Shown here: piece by piece, positions 8,264 through 27,129 of the stretch | Position numbering within the stretch: the first letter of the stretch is position 1 | Layout: each line of letters starts with the position of its first letter | Assembly (NCBI GenBank): GCA_963849735.1 | Contig: CAWKJE010000003.1 | Span: 67,595 to 131,594 of the forward strand | Length of the DNA stretch: 64,000 bases | Source of the DNA: an uncultured delta proteobacterium | GTDB lineage: Bacteria; Myxococcota_A; Polyangia; Fen-1088 | Direction of reading: 5' to 3' | Notes under the pieces: model-generated | Databases searched by the model: none | What the model saw: only the letters and a program-made list of their open reading frames with translations | Told to the model about the DNA's origin: nothing | Made by a program: the position numbers and the translations under genes

Positions 8264-8369
8264 TGCCCACAGCGCTGTTGAACTTTAAGGGGTAGCGGCG
8301 GCTCCCTGACCGGCCCGAAGATAGGGCTTGTTCAGGACCAACAGTCCCCGAGGGGACAAGGAGCCGCCG

Positions 8370-9669
8370 ATGAAAAGGAAAGCAGAGAACACGACGAACG
8401 GGAAGGCCGAAGGCATGAATTTGAGGGGCCTGGCCACGATGGTGCGGCAAGTAATGCTGCCGATGGTCGCAGGTATCGTAACCACGAAGAAGGCATTGCA
8501 CGAGTGGGTGGCCGAGATGGGGATGGCCGCACTGGTTGGCGTGATGGAGGCCGACGCTGAGCGGGTGGTCGGATGTCGCAAGGGCGGGCACCAGCAGGGA
8601 CGCCGGCTGAGCCACTGGGGCTACACGGACACGCCCTTCCCGTACGACGGACGGCAGGTGGTGCCGCCGCGCCTGCGCGTTCGCACTGTCGACAAGAATC
8701 AGGAGGTGGCGCTGCCTACGGTGGCGAACTTCCAGTCGCTGGACCCGATGAGCATGCGCGTGGTGGACCAGATTCTACTTGGTGTATCAACGCGGGGCTA
8801 CGAGGCAAGCCTGGGCGCAGGACCTGCGGGACTGCGGACCAAGGGAGGGAAGAAGAGTCGCGTGAGCGAGGTGTTCGTCCAGGAGACCAGGCGGCGGATG
8901 AAGGACCGTCTGGCGGAAAGGCTGTATGGCCTGGACTTGGTGGCGATGCTGCTCGACGGTGTGCATGTTGCCGAACACGCAATCGTCGTTGGCCTGGGCA
9001 TAGCTCGAGACGGGGGCAAACACATTCTTGGGCTACGTCAGGGCTCAACGGAGAACGCCATGCTGTGCACGGAGCTGCTCCAGGACTTCGTGGCGCGTGG
9101 GCTGAAGAATATCGAGGGCTTGCTCTACGTGGTGGACGGCGGTAAGGGCCTGCGCACCGCCATACGCGACGTGGCCGGCAACAGCGCAGTGGTACAACGC
9201 TGCCAACAGCACAAGCGCCGGGACGTGGTCGGTCACCTGCCCCAGTCGCGCCAGAAGACCGTCGACCGGATGCTGGTCGATGCGTACAAGAGCGAGAGCC
9301 TGAAGACAGCGCGCAAGCGGCTCGGCCAGATCGTCTCGTGGCTGGAGCGGAACGGTGAAGAAGACGCAGCGGCGAGCCTACGCGAGGGACTGGAAGAAAC
9401 TCTGACCGTCTGGAAGCTCGATCTGCCCGAGCCGCTCCGGCGGTTCTTCGGGACGACCAACGCCATCGAGAACGTCCTCGGAGTCGTGCGCCGGGTGAGC
9501 CGCAACGTGAAGAACTGGCGTCACGGCGCGATGGCGAAGCGGTGGACCGGCATCGGCCTCATAGCTGCTGAGAAGAACTTCCACCGAATCAAGGGTCATC
9601 GCCACATGCCCGCACTTGTCGAGGCCCTCAGGCGACTCCGTCGCCGACAACGTCCGCCGCAAGGAATCC
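8370..9669 (+). CDS. IS256-family (Mutator-type) transposase lacking its own stop codon; ORF runs into the CRISPR array
   Basis: 'QRCQQHKRRDVVGHL' (IS256 QRCxVHKxRN signature). 'LYVVDGGKGLRTAI' and 'TTNAIENVLGVVRRVSRNVKNWR'. ATG at 8370 with AAGGAGCC RBS. No stop until 9866, which is inside translated repeats. Confidence 0.75.
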
Positions 9670-12600
9670 GTTTCAATCCACGCCCGGCCCCGAGGGGCCA
9701 GGCGACACTCGTACCGCTTTCACTGCATCTTCGTGGTCGAGTTTCAATCCACGCCCGGCCCCGAGGGGCCAGGCGACCCGTTGGGCCCGCGCAGCACGTC
9801 CGCCCGGCACAGGTTTCAATCCACGCCCGGCCCCGAGGGGCCAGGCGACGTCCTTCGGCCCCGTGATCATGAGAGCGCAGCTCGGTTTCAATCCACGCCC
9901 GGCCCCGAGGGGCCAGGCGACATCATTCGCGAGCTGCGGGTGGAGGGGTGGCTCGGTTTCAATCCACGCCCGGCCCCGAGGGGCCAGGCGACTCCGAGCA
10001 CGCCGAGCTGCTGCGGGCCGAGCCGGTTTCAATCCACGCCCGGCCCCGAGGGGCCAGGCGACATGTGCCAGTCGCCATGTGGCCGGAGGGCACGGTTTCA
10101 ATCCACGCCCGGCCCCGAGGGGCCAGGCGACACAGCTCCGAGGTGCCAGCCACGCCCACGGAGGTGTTTCAATCCACGCCCGGCCCCGAGGGGCCAGGCG
10201 ACGGTCACGGAAAGTACGCTGTAGCGTCTTGTCCTGTTTCAATCCACGCCCGGCCCCGAGGGGCCAGGCGACCCTGGGCTTGATACTCGCTACTGGGTTT
10301 CACGTGGTTTCAATCCACGCCCGGCCCCGAGGGGCCAGGCGACGCGAAGCTGCCCGACATCTTCTACGTGCGTGCGGTGTTTCAATCCACGCCCGGCCCC
10401 GAGGGGCCAGGCGACACTGCATCGCGCTCTGCTACCCGCCTGCGATTCTGTTTCAATCCACGCCCGGCCCCGAGGGGCCAGGCGACTCACGCAGAATGCC
10501 CAGCAGGTCCAAACCCAGAAGTTTCAATCCACGCCCGGCCCCGAGGGGCCAGGCGACCTGAGCGACCTGGAGCTAGGCAAGCGCGCGTCGGTGTTTCAAT
10601 CCACGCCCGGCCCCGAGGGGCCAGGCGACATGCAAGGCCAATGGCCAGATCTACGGGCTCGACGTGTTTCAATCCACGCCCGGCCCCGAGGGGCCAGGCG
10701 ACATGTTCCCGCCATCGTCCAGCGGGGCAAGGAGGCGTTTCAATCCACGCCCGGCCCCGAGGGGCCAGGCGACCCCGGTGGAACGCCTTGAGCGCCACGA
10801 AGATCCGAGTTTCAATCCACGCCCGGCCCCGAGGGGCCAGGCGACCATCTTCGCCACCGCACCCGTTGCCGGCGAGCCGTTTCAATCCACGCCCGGCCCC
10901 GAGGGGCCAGGCGACGCTGGCTGTGACCGTGAGTCGGCAACCGGACCTTGTTTCAATCCACGCCCGGCCCCGAGGGGCCAGGCGACGATGACGAGCGCCC
11001 AGACGGTGGTAATCCCCTCGTTTCAATCCACGCCCGGCCCCGAGGGGCCAGGCGACCCAGGTTGGATTGGGGCTTGTTGCCCGACAGGGTGTTTCAATCC
11101 ACGCCCGGCCCCGAGGGGCCAGGCGACTTGTCCGTCTTGCTACAAAGCCAAGATGTCGCAGGTTTCAATCCACGCCCGGCCCCGAGGGGCCAGGCGACAC
11201 CCCAGCGCCGTCGTGACGCCAGCCCCGGTTATGTTTCAATCCACGCCCGGCCCCGAGGGGCCAGGCGACAAGGCGCCTCCAATAACCCGGGGCTGGTAGC
11301 CAAGTTTCAATCCACGCCCGGCCCCGAGGGGCCAGGCGACAAGCAGGTGGCTTGGGCGGCCAAGCTGCGCATTGTTTCAATCCACGCCCGGCCCCGAGGG
11401 GCCAGGCGACGAGAGCGCCGTCAGGTCGTACGTCCCGATTAGCCGGTTTCAATCCACGCCCGGCCCCGAGGGGCCAGGCGACTATCGAACGCAGGGACGA
11501 TGGCGCGCAGGATGTGTTTCAATCCACGCCCGGCCCCGAGGGGCCAGGCGACATGGCCGTCGTGGTGCCGGTGCCCGTGCCCGACTGGTTTCAATCCACG
11601 CCCGGCCCCGAGGGGCCAGGCGACTCACCGCGAGCCCGCCAGGCGCAACCGAAGCCGTGGGTTTCAATCCACGCCCGGCCCCGAGGGGCCAGGCGACGTG
11701 CTGAAATGATCGACACCGACGCCGTGTGGATAGTTTCAATCCACGCCCGGCCCCGAGGGGCCAGGCGACACGTCCCGCCGTAAGTCGTCCCCTGCATGAT
11801 CTCGTTTCAATCCACGCCCGGCCCCGAGGGGCCAGGCGACAGCGTCAGTCGGTCTACCAGCTCTACAAGGCTCGGTTTCAATCCACGCCCGGCCCCGAGG
11901 GGCCAGGCGACCCTGCTGCGCGGGTAGGTCCACGGCCCAGGACACGACGTTTCAATCCACGCCCGGCCCCGAGGGGCCAGGCGACACCATGCGGATCTGC
12001 TGCATCACGTCCAGGGAGGGGTTTCAATCCACGCCCGGCCCCGAGGGGCCAGGCGACGCCATGACAGGCCCAACCACCCGCCCAATGTGCTTTGGTTTCA
12101 ATCCACGCCCGGCCCCGAGGGGCCAGGCGACCGGGCAGCCACAGCGGGAGTCCGACGGCAAGTAGGGTTTCAATCCACGCCCGGCCCCGAGGGGCCAGGC
12201 GACAGTGACACCAACGAGATCACGGCCGATGATCTGAAGTTTCAATCCACGCCCGGCCCCGAGGGGCCAGGCGACTCATCGTGCCGTTCGAGATCAGCGA
12301 CACCTTCCGGGTTTCAATCCACGCCCGGCCCCGAGGGGCCAGGCGACGTCCCCGAACACAGCGTCCGTGTCCGTGGCGAACTGTTTCAATCCACGCCCGG
12401 CCCCGAGGGGCCAGGCGACCACTGGAGGTCTGCGCCGACACGCTCAGGGTGATGTTTCAATCCACGCCCGGCCCCGAGGGGCCAGGCGACGTGCTGCGCA
12501 GCGGGCATCCGTCGGGCTCTATGAAGTTTCAATCCACGCCCGGCCCCGAGGGGCCAGGCGACTCTCCGTCGAGCAGCACTTGTAAGTCAGGCTTCGGGTT

Positions 12601-15600
12601 TCAATCCACGCCCGGCCCCGAGGGGCCAGGCGACGGCGCCGGCGCAGACCGAGGCGCCTGCTCCCAAGTTTCAATCCACGCCCGGCCCCGAGGGGCCAGG
12701 CGACGTCGTGGAACCCGAGCCACTTGTCGACCAGGTGATCGTTTCAATCCACGCCCGGCCCCGAGGGGCCAGGCGACCTCACCGATCCGTCTCTTGGCCA
12801 TCACAATATGTTTCAATCCACGCCCGGCCCCGAGGGGCCAGGCGACAGGCGCGCGAGGGACAGGCGCTGGCGGTTATCGAGTTTCAATCCACGCCCGGCC
12901 CCGAGGGGCCAGGCGACACGGGCCACATGACATATCGCTCTGGCAACAATACGTTTCAATCCACGCCCGGCCCCGAGGGGCCAGGCGACACCGAAGGCTT
13001 TGCGCTGCACCGCCAGATGCCGGGTTTCAATCCACGCCCGGCCCCGAGGGGCCAGGCGACCTGCGCCTGGGTCCATTCGTCCGGTTCGGCACGTAGTTTC
13101 AATCCACGCCCGGCCCCGAGGGGCCAGGCGACCTGCGCCTGGGTCCATTCGTCCGGTTCGGCACGTAGTTTCAATCCACGCCCGGCCCCGAGGGGCCAGG
13201 CGACAGAGACGAGCATCGCAGGCATTGCAGCTCTTAGTTTCAATCCACGCCCGGCCCCGAGGGGCCAGGCGACACGCCGCGTGGGCTGAAGTTCTTGCGG
13301 GAGCTGGTTTCAATCCACGCCCGGCCCCGAGGGGCCAGGCGACGGGCGAAGGCCACACCATTACGTACGCGAAAGGAGTTTCAATCCACGCCCGGCCCCG
13401 AGGGGCCAGGCGACGTATCTGCCAGGAGAGTGCACCGAGGATTGCTTCTAGTTTCAATCCACGCCCGGCCCCGAGGGGCCAGGCGACTGGCTCCGATGCC
13501 AATACGGGAGTCAACTATTTGTTTCAATCCACGCCCGGCCCCGAGGGGCCAGGCGACTCAAGTCGCGCAACCCGGCGCGCGCCGAGCTTGAGTTTCAATC
13601 CACGCCCGGCCCCGAGGGGCCAGGCGACGCGGACAATCGGCCATGACCCGCCGCAAGCGCCAGTTTCAATCCACGCCCGGCCCCGAGGGGCCAGGCGACG
13701 GTAATGGGCCGCCACGTCGTTCCCGTCTGCTGGGTTTCAATCCACGCCCGGCCCCGAGGGGCCAGGCGACCCGGTCACCAGTTGACTGCCAATGCCCCAG
13801 CGGCGGTTTCAATCCACGCCCGGCCCCGAGGGGCCAGGCGACCCGCGGCCCAGCCTCCTCTCCGCAGCGGAGCCAGGTGTTTCAATCCACGCCCGGCCCC
13901 GAGGGGCCAGGCGACCTTTCAATGGCGGCGGATTCGGTAGCGCCGAGAGGTTTCAATCCACGCCCGGCCCCGAGGGGCCAGGCGACACCATTAGGTCGTC
14001 GCCCTTGAAGCCGCAGAAGCGTTTCAATCCACGCCCGGCCCCGAGGGGCCAGGCGACCTTGTGCCGCCCGTCTCCCCTACGTCGGGCAAGTCGTTTCAAT
14101 CCACGCCCGGCCCCGAGGGGCCAGGCGACTTTGCGCGCCCGGTTCACGATCATCATCCATTGCTGTTTCAATCCACGCCCGGCCCCGAGGGGCCAGGCGA
14201 CCGGGCGCATCTTGGTGGGGCGCCCAGTACACGTAGTTTCAATCCACGCCCGGCCCCGAGGGGCCAGGCGACTGTACTTGTACGTCACGGCGGGCGCGTG
14301 CCGAGTGTTTCAATCCACGCCCGGCCCCGAGGGGCCAGGCGACGTGCGCCCGTCGGCAAACTTGGGCTGGCTCACGCCGTTTCAATCCACGCCCGGCCCC
14401 GAGGGGCCAGGCGACCCTGGCCGGCGATCTGCTCCGCCGTGCTGCCATCGGAGTTTCAATCCACGCCCGGCCCCGAGGGGCCAGGCGACGTGGGCAAGCT
14501 GGGCGGTGTGTCAGTACACGGACGGGTTTCAATCCACGCCCGGCCCCGAGGGGCCAGGCGACCGCCGGGGACGGTGCCCTACTGGCCGCCGCAAGCGTTT
14601 CAATCCACGCCCGGCCCCGAGGGGCCAGGCGACTTGAGCGGCACGAGGCCCCCCGACCAGAGCGCCGCGTTTCAATCCACGCCCGGCCCCGAGGGGCCAG
14701 GCGACCGGCGAAGAATGCGTCGCGGCGGTTGAGGCACAAGTTTCAATCCACGCCCGGCCCCGAGGGGCCAGGCGACCGTGAGCGAGCTTGGGCCGGCGCA
14801 GCCCATCGAGTTTCAATCCACGCCCGGCCCCGAGGGGCCAGGCGACGCGCGAACGCCCTCGTCATGGCAGACGATGGCGTGTTTCAATCCACGCCCGGCC
14901 CCGAGGGGCCAGGCGACCGTAGCCTGTCGCCGGGTTGCGCAGCTTCGCGCGGTTTCAATCCACGCCCGGCCCCGAGGGGCCAGGCGACGGCGAAGGGAGT
15001 TCTAGGCATCTGGATTTCTTTGTTTCAATCCACGCCCGGCCCCGAGGGGCCAGGCGACGTCTCCCGAGGCATTGAGGCCGCTAGGCTGATTGTCGTTTCA
15101 ATCCACGCCCGGCCCCGAGGGGCCAGGCGACTGCGGCGGGCGTCATGTGGGTATTCACTGCGATGTTTCAATCCACGCCCGGCCCCGAGGGGCCAGGCGA
15201 CAAGAAAGGGCTTGTCAATAGGTCATTTTGCCCCAGTTTCAATCCACGCCCGGCCCCGAGGGGCCAGGCGACACCCTGACCGTGGGGACCGCGCCGCAGA
15301 CCATCTCGTTTCAATCCACGCCCGGCCCCGAGGGGCCAGGCGACATCGACCAGTAGCGAGGCGGCAGCAGGCGCTTACGTTTCAATCCACGCCCGGCCCC
15401 GAGGGGCCAGGCGACGAGCACGGCGAAGCCTTGCGGCTATGGCACAACAAGTTTCAATCCACGCCCGGCCCCGAGGGGCCAGGCGACTCTCAAGCGTTTC
15501 ACGGACTGGACTGGCAACGAGTTTCAATCCACGCCCGGCCCCGAGGGGCCAGGCGACAGACGGCCGAGCATGCTGATTGGCCAGTCAACGAGTTTCAATC

Positions 15601-18600
15601 CACGCCCGGCCCCGAGGGGCCAGGCGACACCGCGCGCTGGGGGCGAAGCTGTGACCCGCCGTGTTTCAATCCACGCCCGGCCCCGAGGGGCCAGGCGACA
15701 AGACTGTGCCCTGCTTCCCCTTGGCGATCTTATTGTTTCAATCCACGCCCGGCCCCGAGGGGCCAGGCGACTGGGTCCTTGCCGAACACGATAGGGCCGA
15801 GGGTGTTTCAATCCACGCCCGGCCCCGAGGGGCCAGGCGACTCGGCGACAGGTTGAACCAAGCGGTCAACGACCTGTTTCAATCCACGCCCGGCCCCGAG
15901 GGGCCAGGCGACCAGCGCAGCCCATGTTCATCCTCGAACGGCAGATGTTTCAATCCACGCCCGGCCCCGAGGGGCCAGGCGACGAATGGACCGCGACGGG
16001 GCTCGCCTTGGTGACGGGTTTCAATCCACGCCCGGCCCCGAGGGGCCAGGCGACAAGATCGCGGCGGCCGTCTTGCCGTCGATCACCAGGTTTCAATCCA
16101 CGCCCGGCCCCGAGGGGCCAGGCGACACCCGCGGGTGCCTGCTGCCCGGACACACCCGAGGCGTTTCAATCCACGCCCGGCCCCGAGGGGCCAGGCGACT
16201 CAGCTGCGTCGACTTGGAGCCCGTGAAGCTGGCGTTTCAATCCACGCCCGGCCCCGAGGGGCCAGGCGACCAAGCAGGTGGCTTGGGCAGCCAAGCTGCG
16301 CATTGGTTTCAATCCACGCCCGGCCCCGAGGGGCCAGGCGACAGAGACGGCCTGGACTGGTACGTAGAGGTAGGCGGGTTTCAATCCACGCCCGGCCCCG
16401 AGGGGCCAGGCGACCTACAGGGGAGGTTAGGCGTGCTCTGTCGCAGCTGTTTCAATCCACGCCCGGCCCCGAGGGGCCAGGCGACCAGACGACCAGATCA
16501 TTTTTCTTGACAAAGAACGTTTCAATCCACGCCCGGCCCCGAGGGGCCAGGCGACGATCACTTGACTGGCCTACCGGACTTGGTGGAGGAGTTTCAATCC
16601 ACGCCCGGCCCCGAGGGGCCAGGCGACCGGCAGCATGCGCACGTTTGAGTACAAGATGCTGTTTCAATCCACGCCCGGCCCCGAGGGGCCAGGCGACATG
16701 GAATCCGCTTGAGCAGGAAACCAAGCTTGAGTTTCAATCCACGCCCGGCCCCGAGGGGCCAGGCGACAAAAACAGCTTGAGGTTGATCGCGCACTGGTCG
16801 GTTTCAATCCACGCCCGGCCCCGAGGGGCCAGGCGACCCCGCACATCGCCAAGCTAGCCCGCGTGCCCGAGATGTTTCAATCCACGCCCGGCCCCGAGGG
16901 GCCAGGCGACCCAAGTGCCGAGGTTTGAGGCTGCATGATGACCATGTTTCAATCCACGCCCGGCCCCGAGGGGCCAGGCGACCAGGTATGCGGCACAGCT
17001 ACGCTCTATGTAGACAGGTTTCAATCCACGCCCGGCCCCGAGGGGCCAGGCGACCTACCGCTGGATGTGTGCTACTCGTGGCAGTGACGTTTCAATCCAC
17101 GCCCGGCCCCGAGGGGCCAGGCGACAGCTCTGCACGCGATTGTCCGCCGCGTACCAGGAGTTTCAATCCACGCCCGGCCCCGAGGGGCCAGGCGACCTCA
17201 CGCGCGCTAGCGCTACCCTGTAGGCATGTGGTTTCAATCCACGCCCGGCCCCGAGGGGCCAGGCGACCTTTGTGCCGGAGGAGGTGTAACATGAGTACCG
17301 CTGTTTCAATCCACGCCCGGCCCCGAGGGGCCAGGCGACCTGCAGGTTCGTGTCAGGCGCCGCCAGGTGCTTGGCGTTTCAATCCACGCCCGGCCCCGAG
17401 GGGCCAGGCGACAAGTGCGACGAGCAGGTTCAGCGCATCGCCGAGATGTTTCAATCCACGCCCGGCCCCGAGGGGCCAGGCGACCGGCTGACGGACGAGC
17501 AGCTGACCGCCATAGCGGAGTTTCAATCCACGCCCGGCCCCGAGGGGCCAGGCGACCGCAACGATCGCGCTCTCCTGGCCGCGCAGCATGCTGTTTCAAT
17601 CCACGCCCGGCCCCGAGGGGCCAGGCGACCCGCTACCCGGTCGAGGTCTTGTGCGGGGCATGGTTTCAATCCACGCCCGGCCCCGAGGGGCCAGGCGACC
17701 CGCGGGGCAGGGAGGCAAGCCTTGATCAAGCACCTGTTTCAATCCACGCCCGGCCCCGAGGGGCCAGGCGACCATGGTTGAGCGATTCCAGGGCCACGCT
17801 GTCCTGTTTCAATCCACGCCCGGCCCCGAGGGGCCAGGCGACTCAGCTCGCGTCGCCAGTCGCCACGATGACTCTTGTTTCAATCCACGCCCGGCCCCGA
17901 GGGGCCAGGCGACCTCCAGCCGTTCCAGGCGCGTGCGCACGGCCGAGTTTCAATCCACGCCCGGCCCCGAGGGGCCAGGCGACACGAAGAAGGGTCGAGG
18001 GCATGGAAAAGACGATGTTTCAATCCACGCCCGGCCCCGAGGGGCCAGGCGACGCGTCGGCCAGGGGTACGAGTTGCCGCCAAAGTAGTTTCAATCCACG
18101 CCCGGCCCCGAGGGGCCAGGCGACCGCGTCCGGGTGGACGGCGGTCACCAAGGTGATGTTTCAATCCACGCCCGGCCCCGAGGGGCCAGGCGACCGGGCT
18201 GAGCACATGGGACTGCAGGTCGGCCAGGTTTCAATCCACGCCCGGCCCCGAGGGGCCAGGCGACGTTTCTCACCACGAGCGACGGTCAACGCATCGAGTT
18301 TCAATCCACGCCCGGCCCCGAGGGGCCAGGCGACTGGCGCGCAGAACAGCGCCAGATGAGCCAGAACGTTTCAATCCACGCCCGGCCCCGAGGGGCCAGG
18401 CGACAAGGCCCCCTCCGAAGAGCGGCACAACTCATCAAGTTTCAATCCACGCCCGGCCCCGAGGGGCCAGGCGACGGCCTGGTGGATTCAATGCTCGCCC
18501 GCCGACATGTTTCAATCCACGCCCGGCCCCGAGGGGCCAGGCGACAAGAGTCGGCCGAGCACGAGGGCAAGGACGCCGAGTTTCAATCCACGCCCGGCCC

Positions 18601-18901
18601 CGAGGGGCCAGGCGACCTGCAAGGGCGGCAGGATGTCCTCGGCGACGTCCTGTTTCAATCCACGCCCGGCCCCGAGGGGCCAGGCGACCAAGACGCGCAT
18701 CTCGGTAACGTTGGCCACGGTGTTTCAATCCACGCCCGGCCCCGAGGGGCCAGGCGACCTGAGGATCTCCTCCCAAAGCAGCGATGAGCTGAGTTTCAAT
18801 CCACGCCCGGCCCCGAGGGGCCAGGCGACAAGCCGCGCCCGAGCATTGCAACGGCGCCGAGAAGGTTTCAATCCACGCCCGGCCCCGAGGGGCCAGGCGA
18901 C
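9670..18901 (-). CRISPR. Type I-C CRISPR array, 130 repeats and 129 spacers; repeat (plus strand) GTTTCAATCCACGCCCGGCCCCGAGGGGCCAGGCGAC
   Basis: 130 copies of a 37-bp repeat with 71-72 bp period and spacers of 32-37 bp. Minus-strand repeat GTCGCCTGGCCCCTCGGGGCCGGGCGTGGATTGAAAC ends in the type I-C 'ATTGAAAC' signature. Same strand as the adjacent cas genes. Confidence 0.98.
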
Positions 18902-19084
18902 GCACCCGCTAAGAATATGGCAGATTTCGCCCACCTACTGGGGCTTCGGCGCGAAGGGTGCAAGTCTCGCGCAGTTGCGCCGCTGTGGCTGGCGGCGCCA
19001 TGGTCGTACTCTTCGAATTTCAGAGAGCAAGTAGCAAGGCGCGAACGGTCACGGACTTTCATGTCCAATCCACCTTCGCGCTGC
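18902..19084 (-). promoter_or_regulatory. CRISPR leader (between cas2 stop and first repeat)
   Basis: 183-bp non-coding, lower-GC segment lying between cas2 and the repeat at 18865-18901, on the transcribed (minus) strand upstream of the array. Confidence 0.6.
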
Positions 19085-19375
19085 CTAGATGATAAGGGGG
19101 GTATCGAAATCGACGCTCGGCTTGGTTCCGTGATGCTCGGCGCGGCCCAGGTCGTCGGACCCCAGAAAATAGAAACGAAGGCTGTCTTCATCCGGGTCGA
19201 AAAGGCGAAGCAGCTTGCCGCGGAGCTCCACCCAAAGGGCATCCGGCAGGCTGCATTCGAAAACCGAGAATTGCACCCGCTGTCCGCAGCTTTCGCATGC
19301 CTTGGCAATACGCCGCAAGCGACGTCGACCCTCTTTGCTTTCCGTCGAGACGTCATAGGTGACCAGGACGACCAT
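19085..19375 (-). CDS. cas2: CRISPR-associated endoribonuclease Cas2
   Basis: 96 aa beginning 'MVVLVTYDVSTE...', the canonical Cas2 N-terminus. Located immediately next to the array. Confidence 0.9.
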   Translation of the reverse strand: MVVLVTYDVSTESKEGRRRLRRIAKACESCGQRVQFSVFECSLPDALWVELRGKLLRLFDPDEDSLRFYFLGSDDLGRAEHHGTKPSVDFDTPLII

Positions 19376-19384
19376 GAAGATACC

Positions 19385-20410
19385 TCAGCCGGCCGGATGA
19401 AAGGGTGGAAAACTCTCAAGATCACGGCGAAGGGTTCGCGCAAGCAGCCTCGCTTCGACATGCGGGACCAGGCCCCAGGTGATTTCGTCCCCAAGCAACG
19501 GGTGCACGATGGTTGTGGCCTTCCTCTCCTGATGGGCCTTGATGACCAGCTTCCGGGCGTCGTCGGTCAGCTCGACGGCGCCGCTCTCGGTCTTTCGGAA
19601 GTCACCGGGGCGAAGCTGCTGGTTGTTTATCAAGGTGAGCACCAGGCGATCGGCCACCAAGGGCCGCAGGTGTTCCATCAGATCGAGAGCCAACGCTGGT
19701 CGTCCAGCCCGGAACGCGTGCAGAAAGCCAAAAGCCGGATCGAGTCCGTTTCCCTGCAGTGCCGACAGGCAGTCGTTCATCAGCAGCGCGTAGGCAAAAG
19801 ACAGCAGACAGTTTATCGGGTCGCGCGGCGGCCGGCGCTGGCGCGATGTCCATCGGAAGTCATCCCCCTGCTGTCGGACCATATCGCCAAATACCTCGAA
19901 GTACCGAGCCGCGGCTTCGCCTTCGCAGCCTCGCACCTGATCGTGCGTTTCCATTCGAATAAGGTCGCCCATGCGCAGCGAACGGGCGGCGTCGCTCAGG
20001 CGAACGGCCGTATCCCCTTCCGACTCCCTAGCAGCCCGCTGCAGGATGTGGCGTTGGTTTGCAATCTTGCCCTGGACGATGCACTTCGCGATGGCCAGGC
20101 TGCGGCCGGCATCGAGGTGGCATTGCATCTGGTTCAGCCGCAAGAGGGCGCCGTTCTCGCTTGTTCCCTCAACTCGCCCGCGGAACCGTCCCTGCTCCGA
20201 AAGGAAGGCGATGCCGACACCGCGCTCCAGGCACAGGGACATCAGCTCGGGGCTCACGTAGGTGTGCCCCATGCATACGATGGACTCCAGGTGGTGCAGG
20301 GGAACTCGTAGCTTCTGTTCGCGATTGACCCGTACGGAAACTGTCTCACCCTCCTTGAAAAGCGCGGCCTCGGCCGCAGTCACGTATAACGTATTCTGGA
20401 GAACCGCCAT
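19385..20410 (-). CDS. cas1: CRISPR-associated integrase Cas1
   Basis: 342 aa from ATG at 20410 ('MAVLQNTLYV...'). The longer ORF to 20677 has an implausible Arg/Gly-rich N-terminus. Lies between cas4 and cas2. Confidence 0.85.
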   Translation of the reverse strand: MAVLQNTLYVTAAEAALFKEGETVSVRVNREQKLRVPLHHLESIVCMGHTYVSPELMSLCLERGVGIAFLSEQGRFRGRVEGTSENGALLRLNQMQCHLDAGRSLAIAKCIVQGKIANQRHILQRAARESEGDTAVRLSDAARSLRMGDLIRMETHDQVRGCEGEAAARYFEVFGDMVRQQGDDFRWTSRQRRPPRDPINCLLSFAYALLMNDCLSALQGNGLDPAFGFLHAFRAGRPALALDLMEHLRPLVADRLVLTLINNQQLRPGDFRKTESGAVELTDDARKLVIKAHQERKATTIVHPLLGDEITWGLVPHVEARLLARTLRRDLESFPPFHPAG

Positions 20411-20412: not shown

Positions 20413-21036
20413 TCAGAGCTCCCGCATGTAGGCCGCCAAGTGCCCGCGCGACGGCAGCGAAGGCATACACTGGCCTCGCAAGCTGCACCGCCCACACTTT
20501 GGGCCAGGCTCGGGCTCGGGTGTTCGGCCAGATTGCAGCATGGAAGCGATCGCCGCCACTACTGCCTCTGTGTCCTTGCGAAGTGGCTCGTCGAACGTGA
20601 CTTCCCGCCTGCGGCGGGAAGCCCCGAAATACAGCGCCCCGATCGGAACGGGAACCGCTAGCATCTCCTCCAGACACAGACCTTGGGCGCAGAGCTGCAG
20701 CTCTGCATGCCTGAAGGTGTTGCGCACGCTCCGTTTGTATTCGACGGGGAATGGTTTGCCAGGCGGCGGGTACGCCGGATCGGAATAGAAGACAACCATG
20801 TCCGCCCGCCCGGACAGAGCCAGGTGATCACTCTTCAGCGCAAGCGCCCGCGCCTTCTTCATGCCTGGTCGCTGTTCCAGCCCGGGGAGGTCCACCTGCT
20901 CGTGCATCACCTTGCCCTGAGCGGTGAGCACGTTCTCCGCCCAGAGCCCCTCAAGATGGATCAGCCCACACTGGCGCCTACAAAAGCTCCAGTGCTCGAT
21001 CGCCGAGATCGCGACGAGGCGTTCGTCGTCGTCCAC
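20413..21036 (-). CDS. cas4: CRISPR-associated exonuclease Cas4 (RecB-like, Fe-S cysteines)
   Basis: 207 aa with N-terminal Cys plus C-terminal 'CGRCSLRGQC' cluster. Stop overlaps cas1 start. Confidence 0.8.
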   Translation of the reverse strand: MDDDERLVAISAIEHWSFCRRQCGLIHLEGLWAENVLTAQGKVMHEQVDLPGLEQRPGMKKARALALKSDHLALSGRADMVVFYSDPAYPPPGKPFPVEYKRSVRNTFRHAELQLCAQGLCLEEMLAVPVPIGALYFGASRRRREVTFDEPLRKDTEAVVAAIASMLQSGRTPEPEPGPKCGRCSLRGQCMPSLPSRGHLAAYMREL

Positions 21037-21074: not shown

Positions 21075-21944
21075 TTAGAAGCCGTTGATCTCTTCCGGTT
21101 TGAGCCTGTCCAGTGGCGTTAGATCATAGCTGCCATCAGCCTTCACTGTCAGCGAGCGGTGGACCTTTGCCGACGAGTACTGCCCTGACTTGCAGTTGTG
21201 TTCCCACCAGAAGACCTTTGCCACTTCCATGCTGCCTTCTGGCCGAGCAGAGGAAGCGTCATTCTCGAATAGCTTGGGGAGGATAGATTTGATAGTGGCC
21301 GCATCGGCGTCAGAGAAGCCGGTGCGTTCAGCGAGTTGCGGGTTCATCGAGCCAAACGTGACATACACGCCGTTGTCCACCCGATGCTTCATCCCCATGG
21401 TGTCGGAGGATCGCTTGCCGCCATCACCCTCTCCACTCACGCTCTTCGTAATCTGCGTGCTGGTCACACTAACTGGCTCGATGCTGAAGGCCGATTGGAT
21501 CGACACAGGTCCGCGAATGCCGATCGAGACGCTGCCGTCGCCCTCGTCGCTCCCCTTTCCCTTCTTTTCACCCGCATATGGGAAGAGCTGGCCAAAGGCG
21601 CGGACGTCAAACCATGTGCTGCATGCAATCTCGACGATCCTGGCTTTCGCCTTTTCCTGACCCATCGTGGCCTCGTACCGCTTTCTCAAGCTTGGGGCAT
21701 CGTCTAGCTTGCGATCATCCGACTGGACGAAGACCGCCTGCCCATTTTGCGGGTCGCCAGATAGGGATGCATAGCGTTCCACGAGCCTGTCGCGGATCTT
21801 GCGTTTCAGGCAAACGTCGGTGATTTCTCCTAGGCCGGAATAGTCGGTCCGCGGACGATTCCCGTTCAGTGGGTCGCCGTTGGGGTTGGCGTTGCGGACG
21901 CGCAGGATCAGGGCAAAATCGACTTTCTTGGTAAGGCTCGGCAT
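21075..21944 (-). CDS. cas7: Cas7c/Csd2 (type I-C Cascade backbone)
   Basis: 'ALILRVRNANPNGDP' Csd2 signature. ATG at 21944 with AGGAGA RBS. Confidence 0.88.
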   Translation of the reverse strand: MPSLTKKVDFALILRVRNANPNGDPLNGNRPRTDYSGLGEITDVCLKRKIRDRLVERYASLSGDPQNGQAVFVQSDDRKLDDAPSLRKRYEATMGQEKAKARIVEIACSTWFDVRAFGQLFPYAGEKKGKGSDEGDGSVSIGIRGPVSIQSAFSIEPVSVTSTQITKSVSGEGDGGKRSSDTMGMKHRVDNGVYVTFGSMNPQLAERTGFSDADAATIKSILPKLFENDASSARPEGSMEVAKVFWWEHNCKSGQYSSAKVHRSLTVKADGSYDLTPLDRLKPEEINGF

Positions 21945-21961: not shown

Positions 21962-23941
21962 TCAATCAGCAGTGGCAGTGGCGCTCGAATCTGCGTCGTC
22001 TGTTTCGACGTGCCGTAGGGCTTGGCGCTGACAGTGATACGCCAGCAGAAACTCGCCCGAGAGTGGATGGTCGTTGCTAAAGGCGTCCTTCTCGTTGGCT
22101 GACGAGAAGTGGCCGAGTACCTCGTCCAGCAGCTCTTCCATGGTCCACAGGAAGGGACTCCGTGACACCCGGAGGCGGCTTTTGTACGGTCCCAGCGAGA
22201 GTTCGATAGTTCGCCAGGTGGTGTACGGGTGATCGGCAAATCGTTGAAATAGGCGCGCCGCGGTTGTGTCCCGGCTTTCCCGGGCAACATAGAGTGCGCG
22301 GCTTTCCAGGTGTTCGGCGATCGCCAGAAGGCGGCCATAAAGGTAATCACGGGTCTTTCGGTCTTCTTCGAGAGCCATCGAGTATCCCCTTTCCTTGTGA
22401 AATCCTTTGAACAGCGCGCAGGCGATGCCTAAGCACTTCTCCCATTCCCATTCTTCACCCTTGGGTCTTGAACGGGCGAAGGTTCGATGTGTGCAACTTG
22501 TCACCAAGTCATAGGGAATGGCGCACTCATCGATGAGGCAAGGAAGAAGCCTCTCAAGCGTGGCCTTACGAAGCTTCTCGTTCTCTTCAGCTCGCGGACC
22601 GTAGGCGGCGTGCACGATGTCGCGAAGTGAAGGCGCACCGACAAATCTGCGATCCCGTCCCATGTCTTGGTGCCACGCCAAGTCGACGTGCCAGGCCTGT
22701 ATGCGTGCCAGAAAATCCGAGGCGCGCAGTTCCCGGTAGTAGACGATGGCGATACCGCCCTTCTTGGGTAACGCCGAGTCAAGGCCGAGCACCATAACGC
22801 CATCACCGTCATCCAAGTTCGCCTGATAGCCAGCAAGCGTGCGCCGCAGACGTTGGGCGAACTCGTACCCCACGTCTCCTGCCTGGCTTGTCGAATCTAT
22901 GCTGTCCAGCTGGTGAGCGGACAAGTCGCTTTCGCCGGTGAGCAATTTCAAGGTGTCTGCCCATGGATCGGGAATCTTGTGCCCGGCGGGCGACCAAGCG
23001 ACGAATACTTGATCTCCTTCCCGAACGAATGCCTGCCTGCGCTCGATCAACCAGCGGAGAGCATAGTGCGCCTTCTGGGAGACATCGTAGGCTACGCCAA
23101 ACGCTTGTGCCGCGTCCTGGAATCTGCCTCGATAGGTAAATCCAGCCTTGTCATTGGCTGAGATGAGCTTGGCGTTGTCGCCCGCGTGACGGATTTTCTT
23201 GGGATGTTGCTTGGCCAGGGGAGCTGTACGCCCGGTGACTTGGCAAACGTCGCCGGTGGCCTGTCGGCTTGCATAGAACTTCTGCCAGGCGAGGATGAGC
23301 GCCGGATCTTCCCAAGTACCGGTACACAATTCCCTTCGGGACTCAATGCGCCAACGGATGAATGCATCGGTCGGCGATTGGCCGTTGCCGAGGGCCTGGA
23401 AGATCGCGGGGGCGGTTCCGCGATCACGCGGCCACTCCTTGACGACCTCCGGGACACCGCTAGGAGCCCCGTCGGTTACGGGCAGAACTCCAGACGTAAC
23501 TAGGTCCGCTACGACCTTGCCGCGTTGGACATATGCCAGCACTGCATCGAGCTTGACCAGACCCGTTGAGAACCTGGCCCATTTCTGCAGGAGGCCCAAA
23601 TAGTCGTCATGAGGCGCGCCAGGGGTATTGGCGAATCCGGACGTAACTTCACCGCCGTAGTCCCGGAAGTCCTTGGCAACATACTGGAGATTGTCGCAGA
23701 GAGGATGACTCGACGGCATCGTGCCCGAGCGCCCGCCAGATTCCTCAGTGCATGGGACCAGTGTTTGTTGTTGGTCTTTCGGTATGAGCAACGCTCGGCG
23801 GAATTCCCCCTTCTCATCGATGACTATTTCGATATGCGCCTGTTGGGTCGTATGCGCGATGGGCAGCAGGGCCTTTGCATCGGGAAGGTCGGAACCGGCA
23901 CAGCGCTCGTAGGTATCATAGAGCTTTTGCATCCAGGACAT
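21962..23941 (-). CDS. cas8c: Cas8c/Csd1 (type I-C large subunit)
   Basis: ~659 aa between cas5 and cas7. ATG at 23941 ('MSWMQKLYDTYERCAG...'). Confidence 0.8.
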   Translation of the reverse strand: MSWMQKLYDTYERCAGSDLPDAKALLPIAHTTQQAHIEIVIDEKGEFRRALLIPKDQQQTLVPCTEESGGRSGTMPSSHPLCDNLQYVAKDFRDYGGEVTSGFANTPGAPHDDYLGLLQKWARFSTGLVKLDAVLAYVQRGKVVADLVTSGVLPVTDGAPSGVPEVVKEWPRDRGTAPAIFQALGNGQSPTDAFIRWRIESRRELCTGTWEDPALILAWQKFYASRQATGDVCQVTGRTAPLAKQHPKKIRHAGDNAKLISANDKAGFTYRGRFQDAAQAFGVAYDVSQKAHYALRWLIERRQAFVREGDQVFVAWSPAGHKIPDPWADTLKLLTGESDLSAHQLDSIDSTSQAGDVGYEFAQRLRRTLAGYQANLDDGDGVMVLGLDSALPKKGGIAIVYYRELRASDFLARIQAWHVDLAWHQDMGRDRRFVGAPSLRDIVHAAYGPRAEENEKLRKATLERLLPCLIDECAIPYDLVTSCTHRTFARSRPKGEEWEWEKCLGIACALFKGFHKERGYSMALEEDRKTRDYLYGRLLAIAEHLESRALYVARESRDTTAARLFQRFADHPYTTWRTIELSLGPYKSRLRVSRSPFLWTMEELLDEVLGHFSSANEKDAFSNDHPLSGEFLLAYHCQRQALRHVETDDADSSATATAD

Positions 23942-23942: not shown

Positions 23943-24665
23943 TTAGGCCCCCCATTCGTTGGCTTCGGTCTCCACGGGCCTGACGTTCTTGCCGAGGCCA
24001 AAGCGCTTGGCCGTCATATCGCGGACGACTTTTCGGATGGCGCACTCCTCGGGGCGAGGGAATCGCAGGACGCCGTCGACCAGCTTCGGCATCCAGAAGC
24101 GGGCTTGTAGTCTGTTGTCACCAGTCTCGTCTGGATAGTCGAAACCATGGAACATCAACCCGAAGCCAAGCTCGCCAGCATCGTCAAGCTCCCCTGTGCC
24201 TGAGCCGAATTCGCTGGGTTCGACGTATCCCTGGCAATCGCGCGTGCCTAGGAAGATGTCCTGTCTGCCGCCGCGTTCGAGCATGCGTTGGGCGATCGCG
24301 AAATGCTTCCCGTCGACTCGGTCCTTGGCCAGATCCGGCTGGGCTTTGTTCCAGACGAAATGAGCCTGGACCTGATACTCGACGTTGGCGAGGAACGTGT
24401 AGATCGCCAGGGCGTTGCCGCCACCATATTTGAGAGGCTTTGTTCCCTTCGTCTGCGTACGAACCCGCTTCATCACCCGCACTTGGTCGATCACCCAGAT
24501 GAGCGTAGGCTTCCAGTAGATCGACTTGGCGATGCCCTTCAACGCCTCGTAGGTTGGAATGTGGTACGAGCACTTCTCGCCACCGATCTTGGTCAATGGA
24601 TCGGTGAAGAGCGCGTAGCGTCCCCAGGTCTTGAATTCAAGCGTGTTTTTGGATTTGCTCGACAT
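23943..24665 (-). CDS. cas5: Cas5c/Cas5d (type I-C, pre-crRNA processing subunit)
   Basis: 240 aa beginning 'MSSKSKNTLEFKTWGRYALFTDP'. Position in the operon is cas3-cas5-cas8c-cas7. Confidence 0.85.
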   Translation of the reverse strand: MSSKSKNTLEFKTWGRYALFTDPLTKIGGEKCSYHIPTYEALKGIAKSIYWKPTLIWVIDQVRVMKRVRTQTKGTKPLKYGGGNALAIYTFLANVEYQVQAHFVWNKAQPDLAKDRVDGKHFAIAQRMLERGGRQDIFLGTRDCQGYVEPSEFGSGTGELDDAGELGFGLMFHGFDYPDETGDNRLQARFWMPKLVDGVLRFPRPEECAIRKVVRDMTAKRFGLGKNVRPVETEANEWGA

Positions 24666-27129
24666 AGAGAAATTCCCCCGGTGACACGGGCTCGGTGGAG
24701 AGCCCGAAGTCCCTGCTGTAGTAGCTTTCGTTTAGGTGGAAGATTTCTGTCCCTGGCTGGACCTCGAAAATCGCCTGTGCGTCTCTGAGCCTGTCAAACT
24801 CGTGGCTAAAGATGTTTACCGTGAATTGCTGTGCTGCACGCAGCAACCGGAATTCCTTGTCGACATCCGTCGCGGCGCACAGCTCCCCGATGAGCCGCCT
24901 ACCCTCCCCATAAGGTACGACAACGCCTTTCGTTGGCGCATCAATGGCTTGGAAGGTGTCGTTCGCGGTCTTGAAGGATTGCCGAAAGTAGTTGACCTTG
25001 CCTTGCCTGAATCCGGTTATGAGCGAGTTTGTAGACAACATGTCCAACAGGTCGTCGCCGCGACCTGCCTTGCCGGGGTTGATCGGATATCCCATCTCGT
25101 CCTTGCGGGCGAAGAAGTAGTTCTCGTAGAACCACGCCATGGCCTTGGGAGAAAGCAGGTCGTTGTCAAAGCGCTCCGGATCGTCCCGGAAGTCGTCGAG
25201 CACTCGCGCTGCCTTCTCGCGAGCGATGTCGATGTCCCGGATTGACGACAGCGATTCCTCGGTCGGGTTGACCACGTGCACGATTCCCGTTGGATTCCTT
25301 CCACTTCGGTTGCAGCGGCCCGCGGCTTGAGCGATCGAGTCCAACCCCGCGGCAAACCGAATCACGCACCCGAAATCGAGGTCAACGCCGGCCTCGATAA
25401 GCTGGGTGCTGATGCAGAGAATGGGTTCGTGATCGAGGAGCTGTTGCCGAATTTGCGTGAGGGACGACTTGCGATGGGCGGGACACATGCATGTGCTGAG
25501 GTGATGGACCGGTAGGCCATGCCCCGAGGCTGTCTTGAACAAGGCCTTTGCCGCCTTCCTAGTGTTCACGACGACCAGACAGCTTCCGCTGCGAGCGACT
25601 TCGGCCCTGGCCAAGTCCGCGATGTCGCCGTCATGCCAGCCGCCGGGCCGGCGAGCATCCTTCACCTCAACCCGCCGAAGTCTCGAGAAGGTGTTCTGGA
25701 CATCTGGGACGATTTCGCTTCCGGAGGCAATTTTCGCTGCCCCCTTCTTGGCGTCTACCTGGCCCAGCAGCGGTTGGGTCGCGGTGCAAAGGACGACAGT
25801 GCTCCCACCTTGCGCCGCAAGAAGGTTGATGGCGTTGTTGAAAAGGTGAATGCACTTGACTGGGAGGCCCTGGATTTCGTCGAAGACGATCAGCGCCCGA
25901 GCAAGTTGATGCATTCGTCGGACTCCTCGGGTCCCCCCGCCAAGAATGGCTTCGAGAAACTGCACGCTGGTTGTGTAGACCACGGGCGCATCCCAGTTCT
26001 CCGACAGGAGCTTGTTCTTCCAGCCTTGCTGCGGCGGTCCCAGGTTCGAGTGATGTTCTAGCACGACCTTGCCGTGGTCTTCGGGACAAGAAGCAGGTTC
26101 AAGAATGCGACGGGCAACATCGGCGTTTTGGTCGATGATGGTGGTGAATGGCACCACGTAGATCACGCGATGCAAGCCATGGGCACGGGCGTGGTGAAGG
26201 GCGAAACGAAGGCTGGCGAGGGTCTTTCCGCCGCCAGTGGGGACGGTAAGGGTGAAGATGCCGCGTGGTCGGGACGCGGCTTGTCGGCAGTGCTCGGAAA
26301 TGTCCCGACGAACTGCGTCGATGGGATGCTGGGGCTCGAGTTTGGTAAGATGGTCTTCGAGTCGGTTTGCGAGGACATCCCAGGACGTGAACTCTCCATG
26401 CTGACGTTCTTGCGCAGCATGGCGACGCTCAAAGTCGGCGGTGTCTTCTCGATCGGCGTCGATCAAGCAGCTGAATAGCATACGAACCAGCAATCCAAGT
26501 TGGAACTGAGCAACCTGGTTCCTGTCTGACCTGTCCGGGGATCCCAGGGCGATGTCATGGAGGTGTTTCGTGAAAGACGTGACGAGCGATTCGTCCTGCA
26601 ACAGTGCTGCTGCCCTTGCCCGAATTTTCGGGTCGAGTTTGCCGAGGGCTTCATCAAGGTGAGTTCGTGCTTCGCCCTTGAGCATCCTCCGGCTGAAGTC
26701 ATCGCGTGGTCCCTCGACCGGATCCGCCACCAAGCAGTCAATGAGCCCCGAATGATGGGATGCGATGCAAAGGGCCAATGCTTGGCCAACGATGGGCCCC
26801 AAAGGACCGGCCTTGCTTAGCGCGTTCCATACGAACTTGGCACCTGCTGTCGAATGGTCGACCTTACCTCTCTGCGCGGCTGGCAGATCGTCATCAGCGT
26901 CAGGATCCTCCTTGCCTGTCCTGCTTCGCAGGTAGTTCTGAAATGCATCGCTGTGTTTTCCGAGGTCATGGAAGAGCCCGATCAGCTCGCCGGCTGGGCC
27001 AAGGCCTATCTTTCCGGCAGACTGAGCGCATCGCCTGGCCGTTCCCTCAAGGTGATCAGACAGGAGCTGTTCCGCGTCGTCAGAATCGCGAACGTGGGCG
27101 ATTGGAAGGCCCATGGCCGTTTTGCTCAT
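24637..27129 (-). CDS. cas3: Cas3 HD-nuclease/helicase
   Basis: HD motif 'LFHDLGKHSDAFQ'. SF2 helicase motifs ('TVPTGGGKT', 'VFDEIQ'). ATG at 27129. Confidence 0.88.
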   Translation of the reverse strand: MSKTAMGLPIAHVRDSDDAEQLLSDHLEGTARRCAQSAGKIGLGPAGELIGLFHDLGKHSDAFQNYLRSRTGKEDPDADDDLPAAQRGKVDHSTAGAKFVWNALSKAGPLGPIVGQALALCIASHHSGLIDCLVADPVEGPRDDFSRRMLKGEARTHLDEALGKLDPKIRARAAALLQDESLVTSFTKHLHDIALGSPDRSDRNQVAQFQLGLLVRMLFSCLIDADREDTADFERRHAAQERQHGEFTSWDVLANRLEDHLTKLEPQHPIDAVRRDISEHCRQAASRPRGIFTLTVPTGGGKTLASLRFALHHARAHGLHRVIYVVPFTTIIDQNADVARRILEPASCPEDHGKVVLEHHSNLGPPQQGWKNKLLSENWDAPVVYTTSVQFLEAILGGGTRGVRRMHQLARALIVFDEIQGLPVKCIHLFNNAINLLAAQGGSTVVLCTATQPLLGQVDAKKGAAKIASGSEIVPDVQNTFSRLRRVEVKDARRPGGWHDGDIADLARAEVARSGSCLVVVNTRKAAKALFKTASGHGLPVHHLSTCMCPAHRKSSLTQIRQQLLDHEPILCISTQLIEAGVDLDFGCVIRFAAGLDSIAQAAGRCNRSGRNPTGIVHVVNPTEESLSSIRDIDIAREKAARVLDDFRDDPERFDNDLLSPKAMAWFYENYFFARKDEMGYPINPGKAGRGDDLLDMLSTNSLITGFRQGKVNYFRQSFKTANDTFQAIDAPTKGVVVPYGEGRRLIGELCAATDVDKEFRLLRAAQQFTVNIFSHEFDRLRDAQAIFEVQPGTEIFHLNESYYSRDFGLSTEPVSPGEFLYVEQIQKHA

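Follow-up and report, generated by a model that had tools for sequence, protein, structure and literature searches.

Why should a single CRISPR array hold two almost identical spacers, separated by 69 acquisitions and differing internally at one base, and does that base record the escape of an invader from host immunity? The question arises from a CRISPR-cas locus in the window, by which we mean the whole 64-kb stretch of DNA that was analysed. A preliminary description of this DNA read the pair as one protospacer sampled twice, the later time from an escape mutant or related variant of the same invader through primed adaptation in a type I system, and hence as an arms-race event. We examined the locus and its polarity, the target of the two spacers, the natural variation at the differing base, and the remaining spacers directed against the same element.

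The type I-C locus and the polarity of its array

The cas genes constitute a complete type I-C set in the order cas3-cas5-cas8c-cas7-cas4-cas1-cas2, with the array downstream (Table 1), and the profile matches bear out the earlier assignment to a type I system. All of the hallmarks of type I-C were found, namely a Cas3 combining HD nuclease and helicase, Cas5d, Cas8c, and Cas7 with no cas6 (the gene order of the operon has no room for a separate one), Cas4-Cas1-Cas2 beside the array, and a TTC PAM.

The array begins 183 bp past cas2 and is transcribed from its high-coordinate end, the repeat in crRNA sense being GTCGCCTGGCCCCTCGGGGCCGGGCGTGGATTGAAAC. Its orientation was established from the TTC PAM and from leader-end additions in a sister contig (L006), which carries three extra repeat-spacer units at the leader/cas2 end, the two versions of the array being otherwise alike. 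Since these extra spacers sit beside cas2, the high coordinates are the newer end; both the leader and cas2 lie at that end, and spacer 93 is thus the younger of the pair, as the preliminary description had proposed. The repeat was not found in the GTDB representative genomes, which places the host species outside that collection.

Table 1. Coordinates within the window of the array, leader, and cas genes, and of the spacers matching the insertion sequence (IS) or its neighbourhood.
Feature	Position	Strand	Evidence and remarks
CRISPR array	9670..18901	-	130 identical 37-nt repeats, 129 spacers of 32-37 nt
Spacer 19	10987..11019	-	matches the opposite strand, 1 mismatch, TTC PAM; 182-aa ORF ~0.9 kb left of the IS in carrier L025
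Spacer 21	11128..11161	-	exact match to IS ORF1, TTC PAM, 48 bp from the 24/93 protospacer
Spacer 24 (older)	11341..11373	-	33 nt; G allele; protospacer directly after canonical TTC PAM, IS ORF1
Spacer 29	11698..11732	-	IS ORF2, 4 wobble mismatches, TTC PAM
Spacer 31	11841..11874	-	IS ORF1, 1 mismatch, TTC PAM; protospacer adjoins that of 24/93
Spacer 93 (newer)	16271..16305	-	35 nt; A allele; protospacer of spacer 24, starting 1 nt earlier
Spacer 107	17268..17302	-	IS ORF1/ORF2 junction, 3-4 mismatches; PAM CTT (non-canonical) in available alleles
Leader	18902..19084	-	between cas2 and first repeat; identical in L006
cas2	19085..19375	-	PF09827, 1.4e-22
cas1	19385..20410	-	profile match; 341 aa by the L006 gene call
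cas4	20413..21036	-	profile match
cas7 (csd2)	21075..21944	-	PF05107, 7e-70
cas8c (csd1)	21962..23941	-	PF09709, 6e-116
cas5d	23943..24665	-	PF09704, 2.3e-42
cas3 (HD nuclease + helicase)	24637..27129	-	Cas3_HD, DEAD, Helicase_C, Cas3-like_C_2 in 24637-27207(-)

The spacer pair and its target

Spacer 24 (AAGCAGGTGGCTTGGGCGGCCAAGCTGCGCATT) and spacer 93 (CAAGCAGGTGGCTTGGGCAGCCAAGCTGCGCATTG), each bordered on both sides by perfect 37-nt repeats, have 32 of 33 bases in common; the sole internal difference, G in the older and A in the newer, lies at position 18 of spacer 24 on the + strand, and spacer 93 is longer by 1 nt at either end, all of which agrees with the earlier reading of the sequences. 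Both spacers recur unchanged in L006, where this locus was assembled independently, and are therefore not sequencing errors. Nor does chance account for their similarity, as had been expected: a search of the window allowing up to three mismatches returned the sites of these two spacers only (0.00 expected, 100 shuffles), and when all 129 spacers were compared with one another the pair scored 30, against 6-8 for the best pairs of shuffled sets. The one other pair to rise clearly above noise in that comparison, spacers 48 and 49, is identical and adjacent.

The shared protospacer is located in ORF1 (at KQVAWAAKLRI) of a 1,904-bp IS recovered from metagenome contigs. The element has the features of the IS1595 family: a DDE transposase (DDE_Tnp_IS1595, PF12762, 1.5e-33) with an N-terminal zinc ribbon (PF12760, 6.8e-12), terminal inverted repeats of 24 bp (21/24 matching), 8-bp target duplications (GTTCAAGT in L004, CCTGATTC in L027, and GAAGGAAC in L033), and varied insertion sites, with at least ten different left flanks or genomic contexts in the metagenomes. 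Target-site duplications of 8 bp are typical of this family. Upstream of the transposase lie two extra ORFs, ORF1 and ORF2, the former encoding a zinc-ribbon/helical protein that also occurs as a stand-alone gene in phages such as RcapMu. ORF1 belongs to no Pfam family and its matching PHROG is of unknown function; its predicted model (pLDDT 88) yielded no significant fold match in the PDB and, in BFVD, matched only uncharacterised phage zinc-ribbon proteins. A structural match to AcrIF23 (E 1.3, TM 0.28) was not taken as evidence. Pfam and PHROG scans of the carrier genes for signs of a phage or plasmid nature returned almost no matches. Judging from the contigs, the IS appears to travel on phage- or plasmid-like elements of many kinds in peat and soil communities. 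No copy of it was found in the 64-kb window, and there is hence no sign of self-targeting.

The database searches that the preliminary description had suggested found the target in metagenome contigs, but recovered no sequence with either exact source allele. When sequenced phages and plasmids were searched by BLAST with the 35-mer, all matches were at chance level except for 29/35 in a hypothetical gene homologue on the P. mendocina plasmid pPME5, and none of the 129 spacers matched sequenced phages and plasmids at E<=1. Exact and wobble-degenerate searches with the protospacer returned nothing from IMG/VR viral contigs or GTDB representative genomes. The exact source alleles (ATT plus G or A) were absent from the databases searched, where even the closest contigs have 2-3 differing positions, and we therefore infer the true flanks of each source; among members of P0001, P0003, P0023, P0024, and P0025 checked for ATT with G or A, 27 of 27 close copies have C and ATC.

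The differing base is the wobble base of the Ala68 codon of ORF1, where a change between G and A is silent, and it lies 16 nt from the PAM, beyond the PAM-proximal seed. All three bases seen there occur in natural copies: G in spacer 24, L003, and L012; A in spacer 93 and the pPME5 homologue; and C, predominant in the metagenome contigs, in 26 contigs of the P0023, P0024, and P0025 groups as well as in L004 and L005. Mismatches between spacer and contig fall nearly without exception at positions 1, 4, 7, and so on from the PAM, that is, at wobble sites, and the TTC PAM of the spacer 24 protospacer is intact in all 30 alleles examined (GAA directly 3' on the + strand). A single mismatch outside the PAM-proximal seed would not be expected to put an end to type I interference.

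Inspection of the flanks, another of the checks proposed earlier, placed TTC immediately beside the protospacer of spacer 24; spacer 93 takes in the C of this motif, so that its own upstream triplet is TTT. The additional PAM-distal base of spacer 93, a C, is absent from every relative examined and corresponds to the wobble base of the GAA codon for Glu64, which is invariant in 17 proteins; this base counts against the explanation favoured below. Off-by-one integration copying a base of the leader or of a neighbouring spacer was considered as a source of the extra bases and rejected, as it predicts C on the trailer side and G on the leader side, the reverse of the observed arrangement.

Origin of the second spacer

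Spacers 24 and 93 are two of six (21, 24, 29, 31, 93, and 107) that match the ORF1-ORF2 half of the IS on the same strand within a span of 630 bp, and spacers 21, 29, and 31 all match within 550 bp of the protospacer of spacer 93. A seventh, spacer 19, matches ~1 kb off in one carrier (L025), on the PAM-distal side of the IS matches; no further spacer matches were found in the ~10 kb on either side of the IS region. The PAMs of the seven are TTC in five, TTT in one (spacer 93), and CTT in one (spacer 107), and five of the seven belong to a run of 13 consecutive old spacers (19-31). PAM sites number 14+8 (~22) in the ORF1-ORF2 half and 38 in the transposase half; from these counts, the strand bias of the six IS matches is weak ((14/22)^6, ~0.07), and the chance that some site recurs among 5-6 draws from the ORF1-ORF2 PAM sites is ~0.35-0.55. 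The clustering may be inflated by detection bias, since for invaders that are otherwise unsampled a match is possible only to their conserved mobile module.

We regard two independent acquisitions from one PAM site, on two allelic copies of a multi-copy IS and probably aided by priming, as the best explanation, with the base difference representing standing variation and no escape mutation (a probability of roughly 0.7). Under this scenario, Cas1-Cas2-Cas4 would have taken both spacers from one PAM site in ORF1, spacer 93 beginning either through a -1 slip or at an alternative TTT PAM (context ATTTC), its additional PAM-distal nucleotide being within the inexact 32-37 nt ruler of the array. 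The host would have met the two allelic copies at different times. Spacer 24, still complementary to the second copy at 32 of 33 positions with a mismatch at position 16, yet deep in a very long array, would together with spacers 21, 29, and 31 probably have given incomplete interference, which in turn would have primed a further acquisition within the same stretch of a few hundred bases; with only ~22 PAM sites there, the re-drawing of one of them is unsurprising. Priming of the acquisition of spacer 93, which the preliminary description had invoked, is plausible from the arrangement of matches described above, and a pre-existing matching spacer is present in spacer 24.

The earlier claim of separate acquisitions from related variants of one protospacer is upheld by the alleles and by the extra PAM-side base of spacer 93, which is the C of the target's TTC. 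The same base tells against the duplication of one repeat-spacer unit within the array followed by point mutation and changes at the junctions; one genuine duplication of a unit is present in the array, at spacers 48 and 49, but a duplication adds no templated target sequence, the spacers neighbouring 24 and 93 are unrelated, and the lengths of the two copies disagree at either end. The templated base effectively refutes this explanation, to which we attach a negligible probability. The preliminary description had also allowed that the two spacers might map to paralogous targets. This is partly so, as the IS is multi-copy in at least ten contexts, and the two alleles may therefore stem from separate copies, each on its own carrier, and not from a single lineage of invader; the protospacer site is the same in both.

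Escape, in which an invader evaded spacer 24 through a G-to-A change and the host then acquired the mutated protospacer, would fit a newer spacer that holds the changed base in a type I system, where mismatched targets prime adaptation, and it has precedent in overlapping type I-C pairs of Legionella in which mismatches at the PAM or seed affect the older spacer while the newer matches perfectly (PMC5071653). In the present pair the mismatch is at position 16, in neither the PAM nor the seed; the site is a silent wobble base with three natural alleles across diverged relatives; 69 acquisitions intervene; and with a target that is a multi-copy IS in many contexts, a single invader is not established. 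We consequently depart from the arms-race reading and judge escape to be quite improbable.

Two unprimed acquisitions at an intrinsic hotspot, during unrelated encounters with different IS carriers and with no role for the older spacers, are a somewhat better prospect, still unlikely in our estimation. Strong sequence-dependent hotspots occur in type I-C regardless of priming strand (PMC5602111), repeat encounters with a multi-copy and widespread IS are to be expected, and the ORF1-ORF2 half takes six of six matches despite having fewer PAM sites than the transposase half (22 vs 38). Against this, five of 13 consecutive old spacers match the IS or its neighbourhood, and the layout of strands, with the IS matches on one and spacer 19 on the other at the PAM-distal side, fits priming; naive acquisition from a whole phage- or plasmid-sized invader (L003 derives from a 51-kb contig) would rarely yield such a pattern. 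A small hairpin in the protospacer (GCTTGG-N4-CCAAGC) was weighed as a possible basis for a hotspot and rejected, since it folds no more stably than shuffled sequences (z ~ -1).

A broader interpretation, which we offer tentatively and hold to be possible though on balance doubtful, is that sustained CRISPR pressure, recorded in the array, has been directed at an active transposon moving among many phage- or plasmid-like carriers and not at one phage, with two accessory genes sampled repeatedly, cross-immunity to all carriers, an intrinsic hotspot at the ORF1 site, and an IS population bearing counter-changes. Some IS copies, for instance, read TGC rather than TTC at the spacer 21 PAM and are changed at seed position 4; they seem to belong to the host's own sample series.

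Significance and comparison with known systems

The pair is of value as a clean natural example of repeat sampling with verified array polarity, and as a caution for array-based inference of arms races: where an old and a new spacer differ by one base, the cause can be neutral wobble polymorphism from one copy of a multi-copy element to another. The target itself shows the CRISPR memory to be aimed at a hitch-hiking IS that is common to many otherwise unrecognisable mobile elements.

In type I-E and I-F systems, priming reportedly follows escape through the PAM or seed, as described by Datsenko in 2012 and Fineran in 2014 and cited in PMC5602111. The likeness to the present locus would lie in an older, imperfectly matching spacer that prompts the uptake of others close by, preferentially from one strand. 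Classically it is a mutation in the PAM or seed that sets this off, whereas a mismatch at position 16, as in the present pair, would not be expected to cause escape. As for the target, the IS shares with the IS1595 family the transposase with its zinc ribbon, short inverted repeats, 8-bp duplications, and many insertion contexts, but at 1,904 bp with two added ORFs it differs from typical members, which are ~1 kb and have one ORF (PMC11092175).

The closest natural parallel is Legionella pneumophila, whose type I-C arrays hold overlapping pairs of old and new spacers against LME-1 (Rao et al. 2016, PMC5071653). There, too, one or an overlapping protospacer of a recurrent mobile element was sampled at different times, several spacers per array match one element, and priming by the older spacer was proposed; the present pair differs in that the changed base is silent and mid-spacer, neither source allele was recovered in its exact form, and an IS takes the place of an episome as target. 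Deep sequencing of type I-C adaptation (Rao et al. 2017, PMC5602111) revealed ~90% TTC PAMs, 2-4% TTT as an alternative, and 6-8% slips and flips, together with an inexact PAM-distal ruler giving spacers of 33-37 nt. Hotspots depended on sequence, perfect matches also primed, and long arrays interfered more weakly. The present locus resembles that system in its TTC PAM, in the TTT PAM or 1-nt slip, and in variable spacer length; a weak strand bias and a local clustering of matches would also agree with it, as would priming by perfect or mismatched targets, favoured by long, weakly interfering arrays; that study used a laboratory plasmid system, whereas here a natural array was read and priming is deduced from it. 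For type I-C, earlier work already describes repeat sampling of a single protospacer, TTT PAMs or slips of 1 nt, and priming that starts from old spacers. The pair accordingly has little bearing on CRISPR mechanism and is a genuine but commonplace trace of encounters that recurred.

Array, cas locus and polarity

Spacers 24 and 93 of the array, numbered from its low-coordinate end, differ by a single G/A substitution, and spacer 93 is longer by one base at both ends, exactly as the preliminary description had stated. Searched with ≤3 mismatches, the sequence of the pair occurred at these two sites only in the window and at none in 100 shuffles. An all-against-all comparison of the spacers gave the pair a score of 30 (shuffled spacer sets reach 6-8), and the sole other clear pair was spacers 48 and 49, which are identical and adjacent. 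Both members were unchanged in L006, a metagenome contig in which this locus was assembled independently. One repeat-spacer unit has been duplicated in tandem to give the 48/49 pair, which L006 also contains. Spacers 15 and 113 overlap end to start, with 15 of 17 bases in common and a score slightly above the best of the shuffled sets, which may reflect overlapping protospacers in variant targets or chance.

Features of the CRISPR locus and its target
Feature	Location	Strand	Details
Mutator-family (IS256-like) transposase ORF	window 8328-9669		abuts oldest repeat
CRISPR array	window 9670-18901		130 identical 37-nt repeats, 129 spacers of 32-37 nt
Spacer 15	window 10703-10736
Spacer 21	window 11128-11161
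Spacer 24	window 11341-11373		AAGCAGGTGGCTTGGGCGGCCAAGCTGCGCATT
Spacer 48	window 13061-13095
Spacer 49	window 13133-13167
Spacer 93	window 16271-16305		CAAGCAGGTGGCTTGGGCAGCCAAGCTGCGCATTG
Spacer 113	window 17700-17735
WYL/WCX-domain regulator gene	window 27140-28126	-	immediately upstream of cas3; strong Pfam match; kept in all sister contigs
Three extra leader-proximal spacers	L006 9657-9900 (ENA ERZ25039486 contig_135113)		33, 25 and 40 nt
Target element	L013 6999-8902		1,904 bp
Spacer 21 protospacer	L033 ~1983-2020

On the minus strand the repeat terminates in ATTGAAAC, and the minus-strand genes to the right of the array are cas3, cas5d, cas8c (csd1), cas7 (csd2), cas4, cas1 and cas2, the last lying 183 bp from the array. 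Pfam matches were strong throughout; the locus is a complete type I-C system, which bears out the type I assignment made earlier. L006, whose cas2 and leader are identical, agrees in spacer content and order and has three more repeat-spacer units right after the leader. New spacers therefore enter at the high-coordinate end, so that spacer 93 is the newer of the two by 69 acquisitions, the polarity originally proposed. Two of the extra spacers in L006 (25 and 40 nt) fall beyond the length range of the 129 others, and its old spacers show a few single-base and indel differences from the window that may be long-read assembly errors. No degenerate terminal repeat was found in the array, the old end of which may have been cut by insertion of the Mutator-family transposase. 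In L007, a short-read contig of the host locus, one repeat only separates cas2 from this transposase, a collapse of the array that is probably an assembly artefact.

The target is an insertion sequence

Exact and wobble-degenerate searches for the protospacer returned nothing from viral contigs or representative genomes and one metagenome contig, L001. The 129 spacers had no matches at E ≤ 1 among sequenced phages (INPHARED) and plasmids (PLSDB), and the 37-nt repeat was absent from 185,579 GTDB representative genomes; both the host and its invaders belong to uncultured dark matter. Homologues of the protein encoded at the L001 site (ORF1) yielded 30-odd further contigs, onto which all 129 spacers were mapped. 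The L001 protospacer lies inside ORF1 (169 aa), encodes KQVAWAAKLRI and has GAA immediately after it on the plus strand, corresponding to a 5'-TTC PAM in crRNA sense.

Across contigs, similarity starts and stops at constant positions, which delimit a 1,904-bp unit bounded by imperfect 24-bp terminal inverted repeats (21/24 matching; CATGCTTATCCGGTTGACAACCAC versus the reverse complement of GTGGTCGTCAAACGGATAGGCATG), with at least 10 different left flanks and 8-bp target-site duplications in L004 (GTTCAAGT), L027 (CCTGATTC) and L033 (GAAGGAAC). The product of the third gene is a transposase (DDE_Tnp_IS1595) that has an N-terminal zinc ribbon. The target belongs to the IS1595 family and has two accessory ORFs ahead of its transposase gene. 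The PHROG that includes ORF1 has no assigned function; ORF1 has homologues that also stand alone in phages (e.g., RcapMu gp4) and is confidently modelled as a structure matching only uncharacterised phage zinc-ribbon proteins. Contigs carrying the element contain small genes in rows, phage- or plasmid-like in type, that could not be annotated; the 64-kb window has no copy. In L011, the right end, 8 bp and the left end follow one another, which could represent the junction of a circle, a second copy in tandem or a wrap-around introduced in assembly.

Spacers 21, 24, 29, 31, 93 and 107 all map to one strand of a 630-bp stretch spanning ORF1 and the following ORF2 (87 aa). Spacer 19 maps to the other strand, on the PAM-distal side, with a TTC PAM ~1 kb left of this stretch in one carrier (L025); no further spacer matches were found in ~10 kb upstream (L013, L014) or ~10 kb downstream (L015). 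The transposase half has none of the six element matches despite its 38 PAM sites, which could reflect a hotspot or a source copy of the kind in L020 and L023, which lack the transposase.

Origin of the spacer pair

The target sequence, in crRNA sense, is ...ATTTC/AATGCGCAG...CTGCTT/T..., the available alleles having G where both spacers have their first A. The 33-nt spacer 24 begins directly after TTC, the canonical PAM; spacer 93 begins one base earlier, having taken the PAM's C into the spacer, so that its own upstream triplet is TTT, and it ends one base later. Both shapes are ordinary, since in type I-C adaptation TTC accounts for ~90% and TTT for 2-4%, slips and flips make up 6-8%, and the PAM-distal ruler is inexact (PMC5602111). 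Because the extra PAM-side base of spacer 93 is templated by the target, duplication within the array is ruled out as the origin of the pair. Its extra PAM-distal base (G in crRNA sense) matches no relative and falls on the third base of the Glu64 codon GAA, invariant in 17 proteins.

The preliminary description had read the pair as re-acquisition from an escape mutant or related variant of the same invader. The escape reading is not supported by the G/A site itself, which is the silent third base of the Ala68 codon and occurs as G (spacer 24, L003, L012), A (spacer 93 and a distant homologue in pPME5) and C (26 close contigs, L004, L005). Where the seven mapped spacers and the contigs disagree, the mismatch is nearly always at position 1, 4, 7 and so on from the PAM; these are wobble sites, because the PAM's GAA is itself a codon. 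A wobble site with three alleles, at position 16 of spacer 24 and hence beyond the PAM-proximal seed, is therefore best read as neutral standing variation among element copies, and the comparison of alleles and positions gave no signs of selection as escape. A single mid-spacer mismatch is not expected to confer escape from type I interference. A related variant did supply the second spacer; with a multi-copy insertion sequence as the target, it is doubtful that this was the same invader.

In the IS copies of L033-L037, the protospacer of spacer 21 has TGC in place of the TTC PAM, which turns Glu into Ala, together with an alteration at seed position 4; in L011 only the PAM is changed, and further relatives show ATC or CTC. 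These changes look more like a CRISPR-escape signature than the 24/93 pair does. JGI Ga0455671 is the source of L033, and Ga0455670 that of L010, a contig of the host.

On the best-supported account, allelic copies of the element were met by the host at least twice, probably with a primed adaptation step. Priming, as previously suggested, is plausible from the geometry of strands and clustered old spacers: 5 of 13 consecutive old spacers (19, 21, 24, 29, 31) derive from the element or its neighbourhood, a clustering that may be inflated by the restriction of matching to a conserved mobile module. By itself the strand bias is weak (about 0.07). Spacer 24 and its neighbours would still have matched a later incoming copy, but from a position ~70 units into a very long array, where interference may be leaky and priming strong; type I-C systems under such conditions show both, even with perfect matches (PMC5602111). 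With only 14+8 TTC sites in the ORF1-ORF2 half, the chance that five or six acquisitions include the same site twice is roughly 0.35-0.55.

Comparison with published type I-C arrays

Natural type I-C arrays of Legionella pneumophila likewise contain older and newer spacers whose protospacers on a recurrent mobile element coincide or overlap, and in the laboratory the same study saw one protospacer acquired independently twice (PMC5071653); the 24/93 pattern is thus a further instance of a phenomenon already published for type I-C. For the older Legionella spacers the mismatches lay in the PAM or seed (PMC5071653), whereas the difference between spacers 24 and 93 is silent and mid-spacer.
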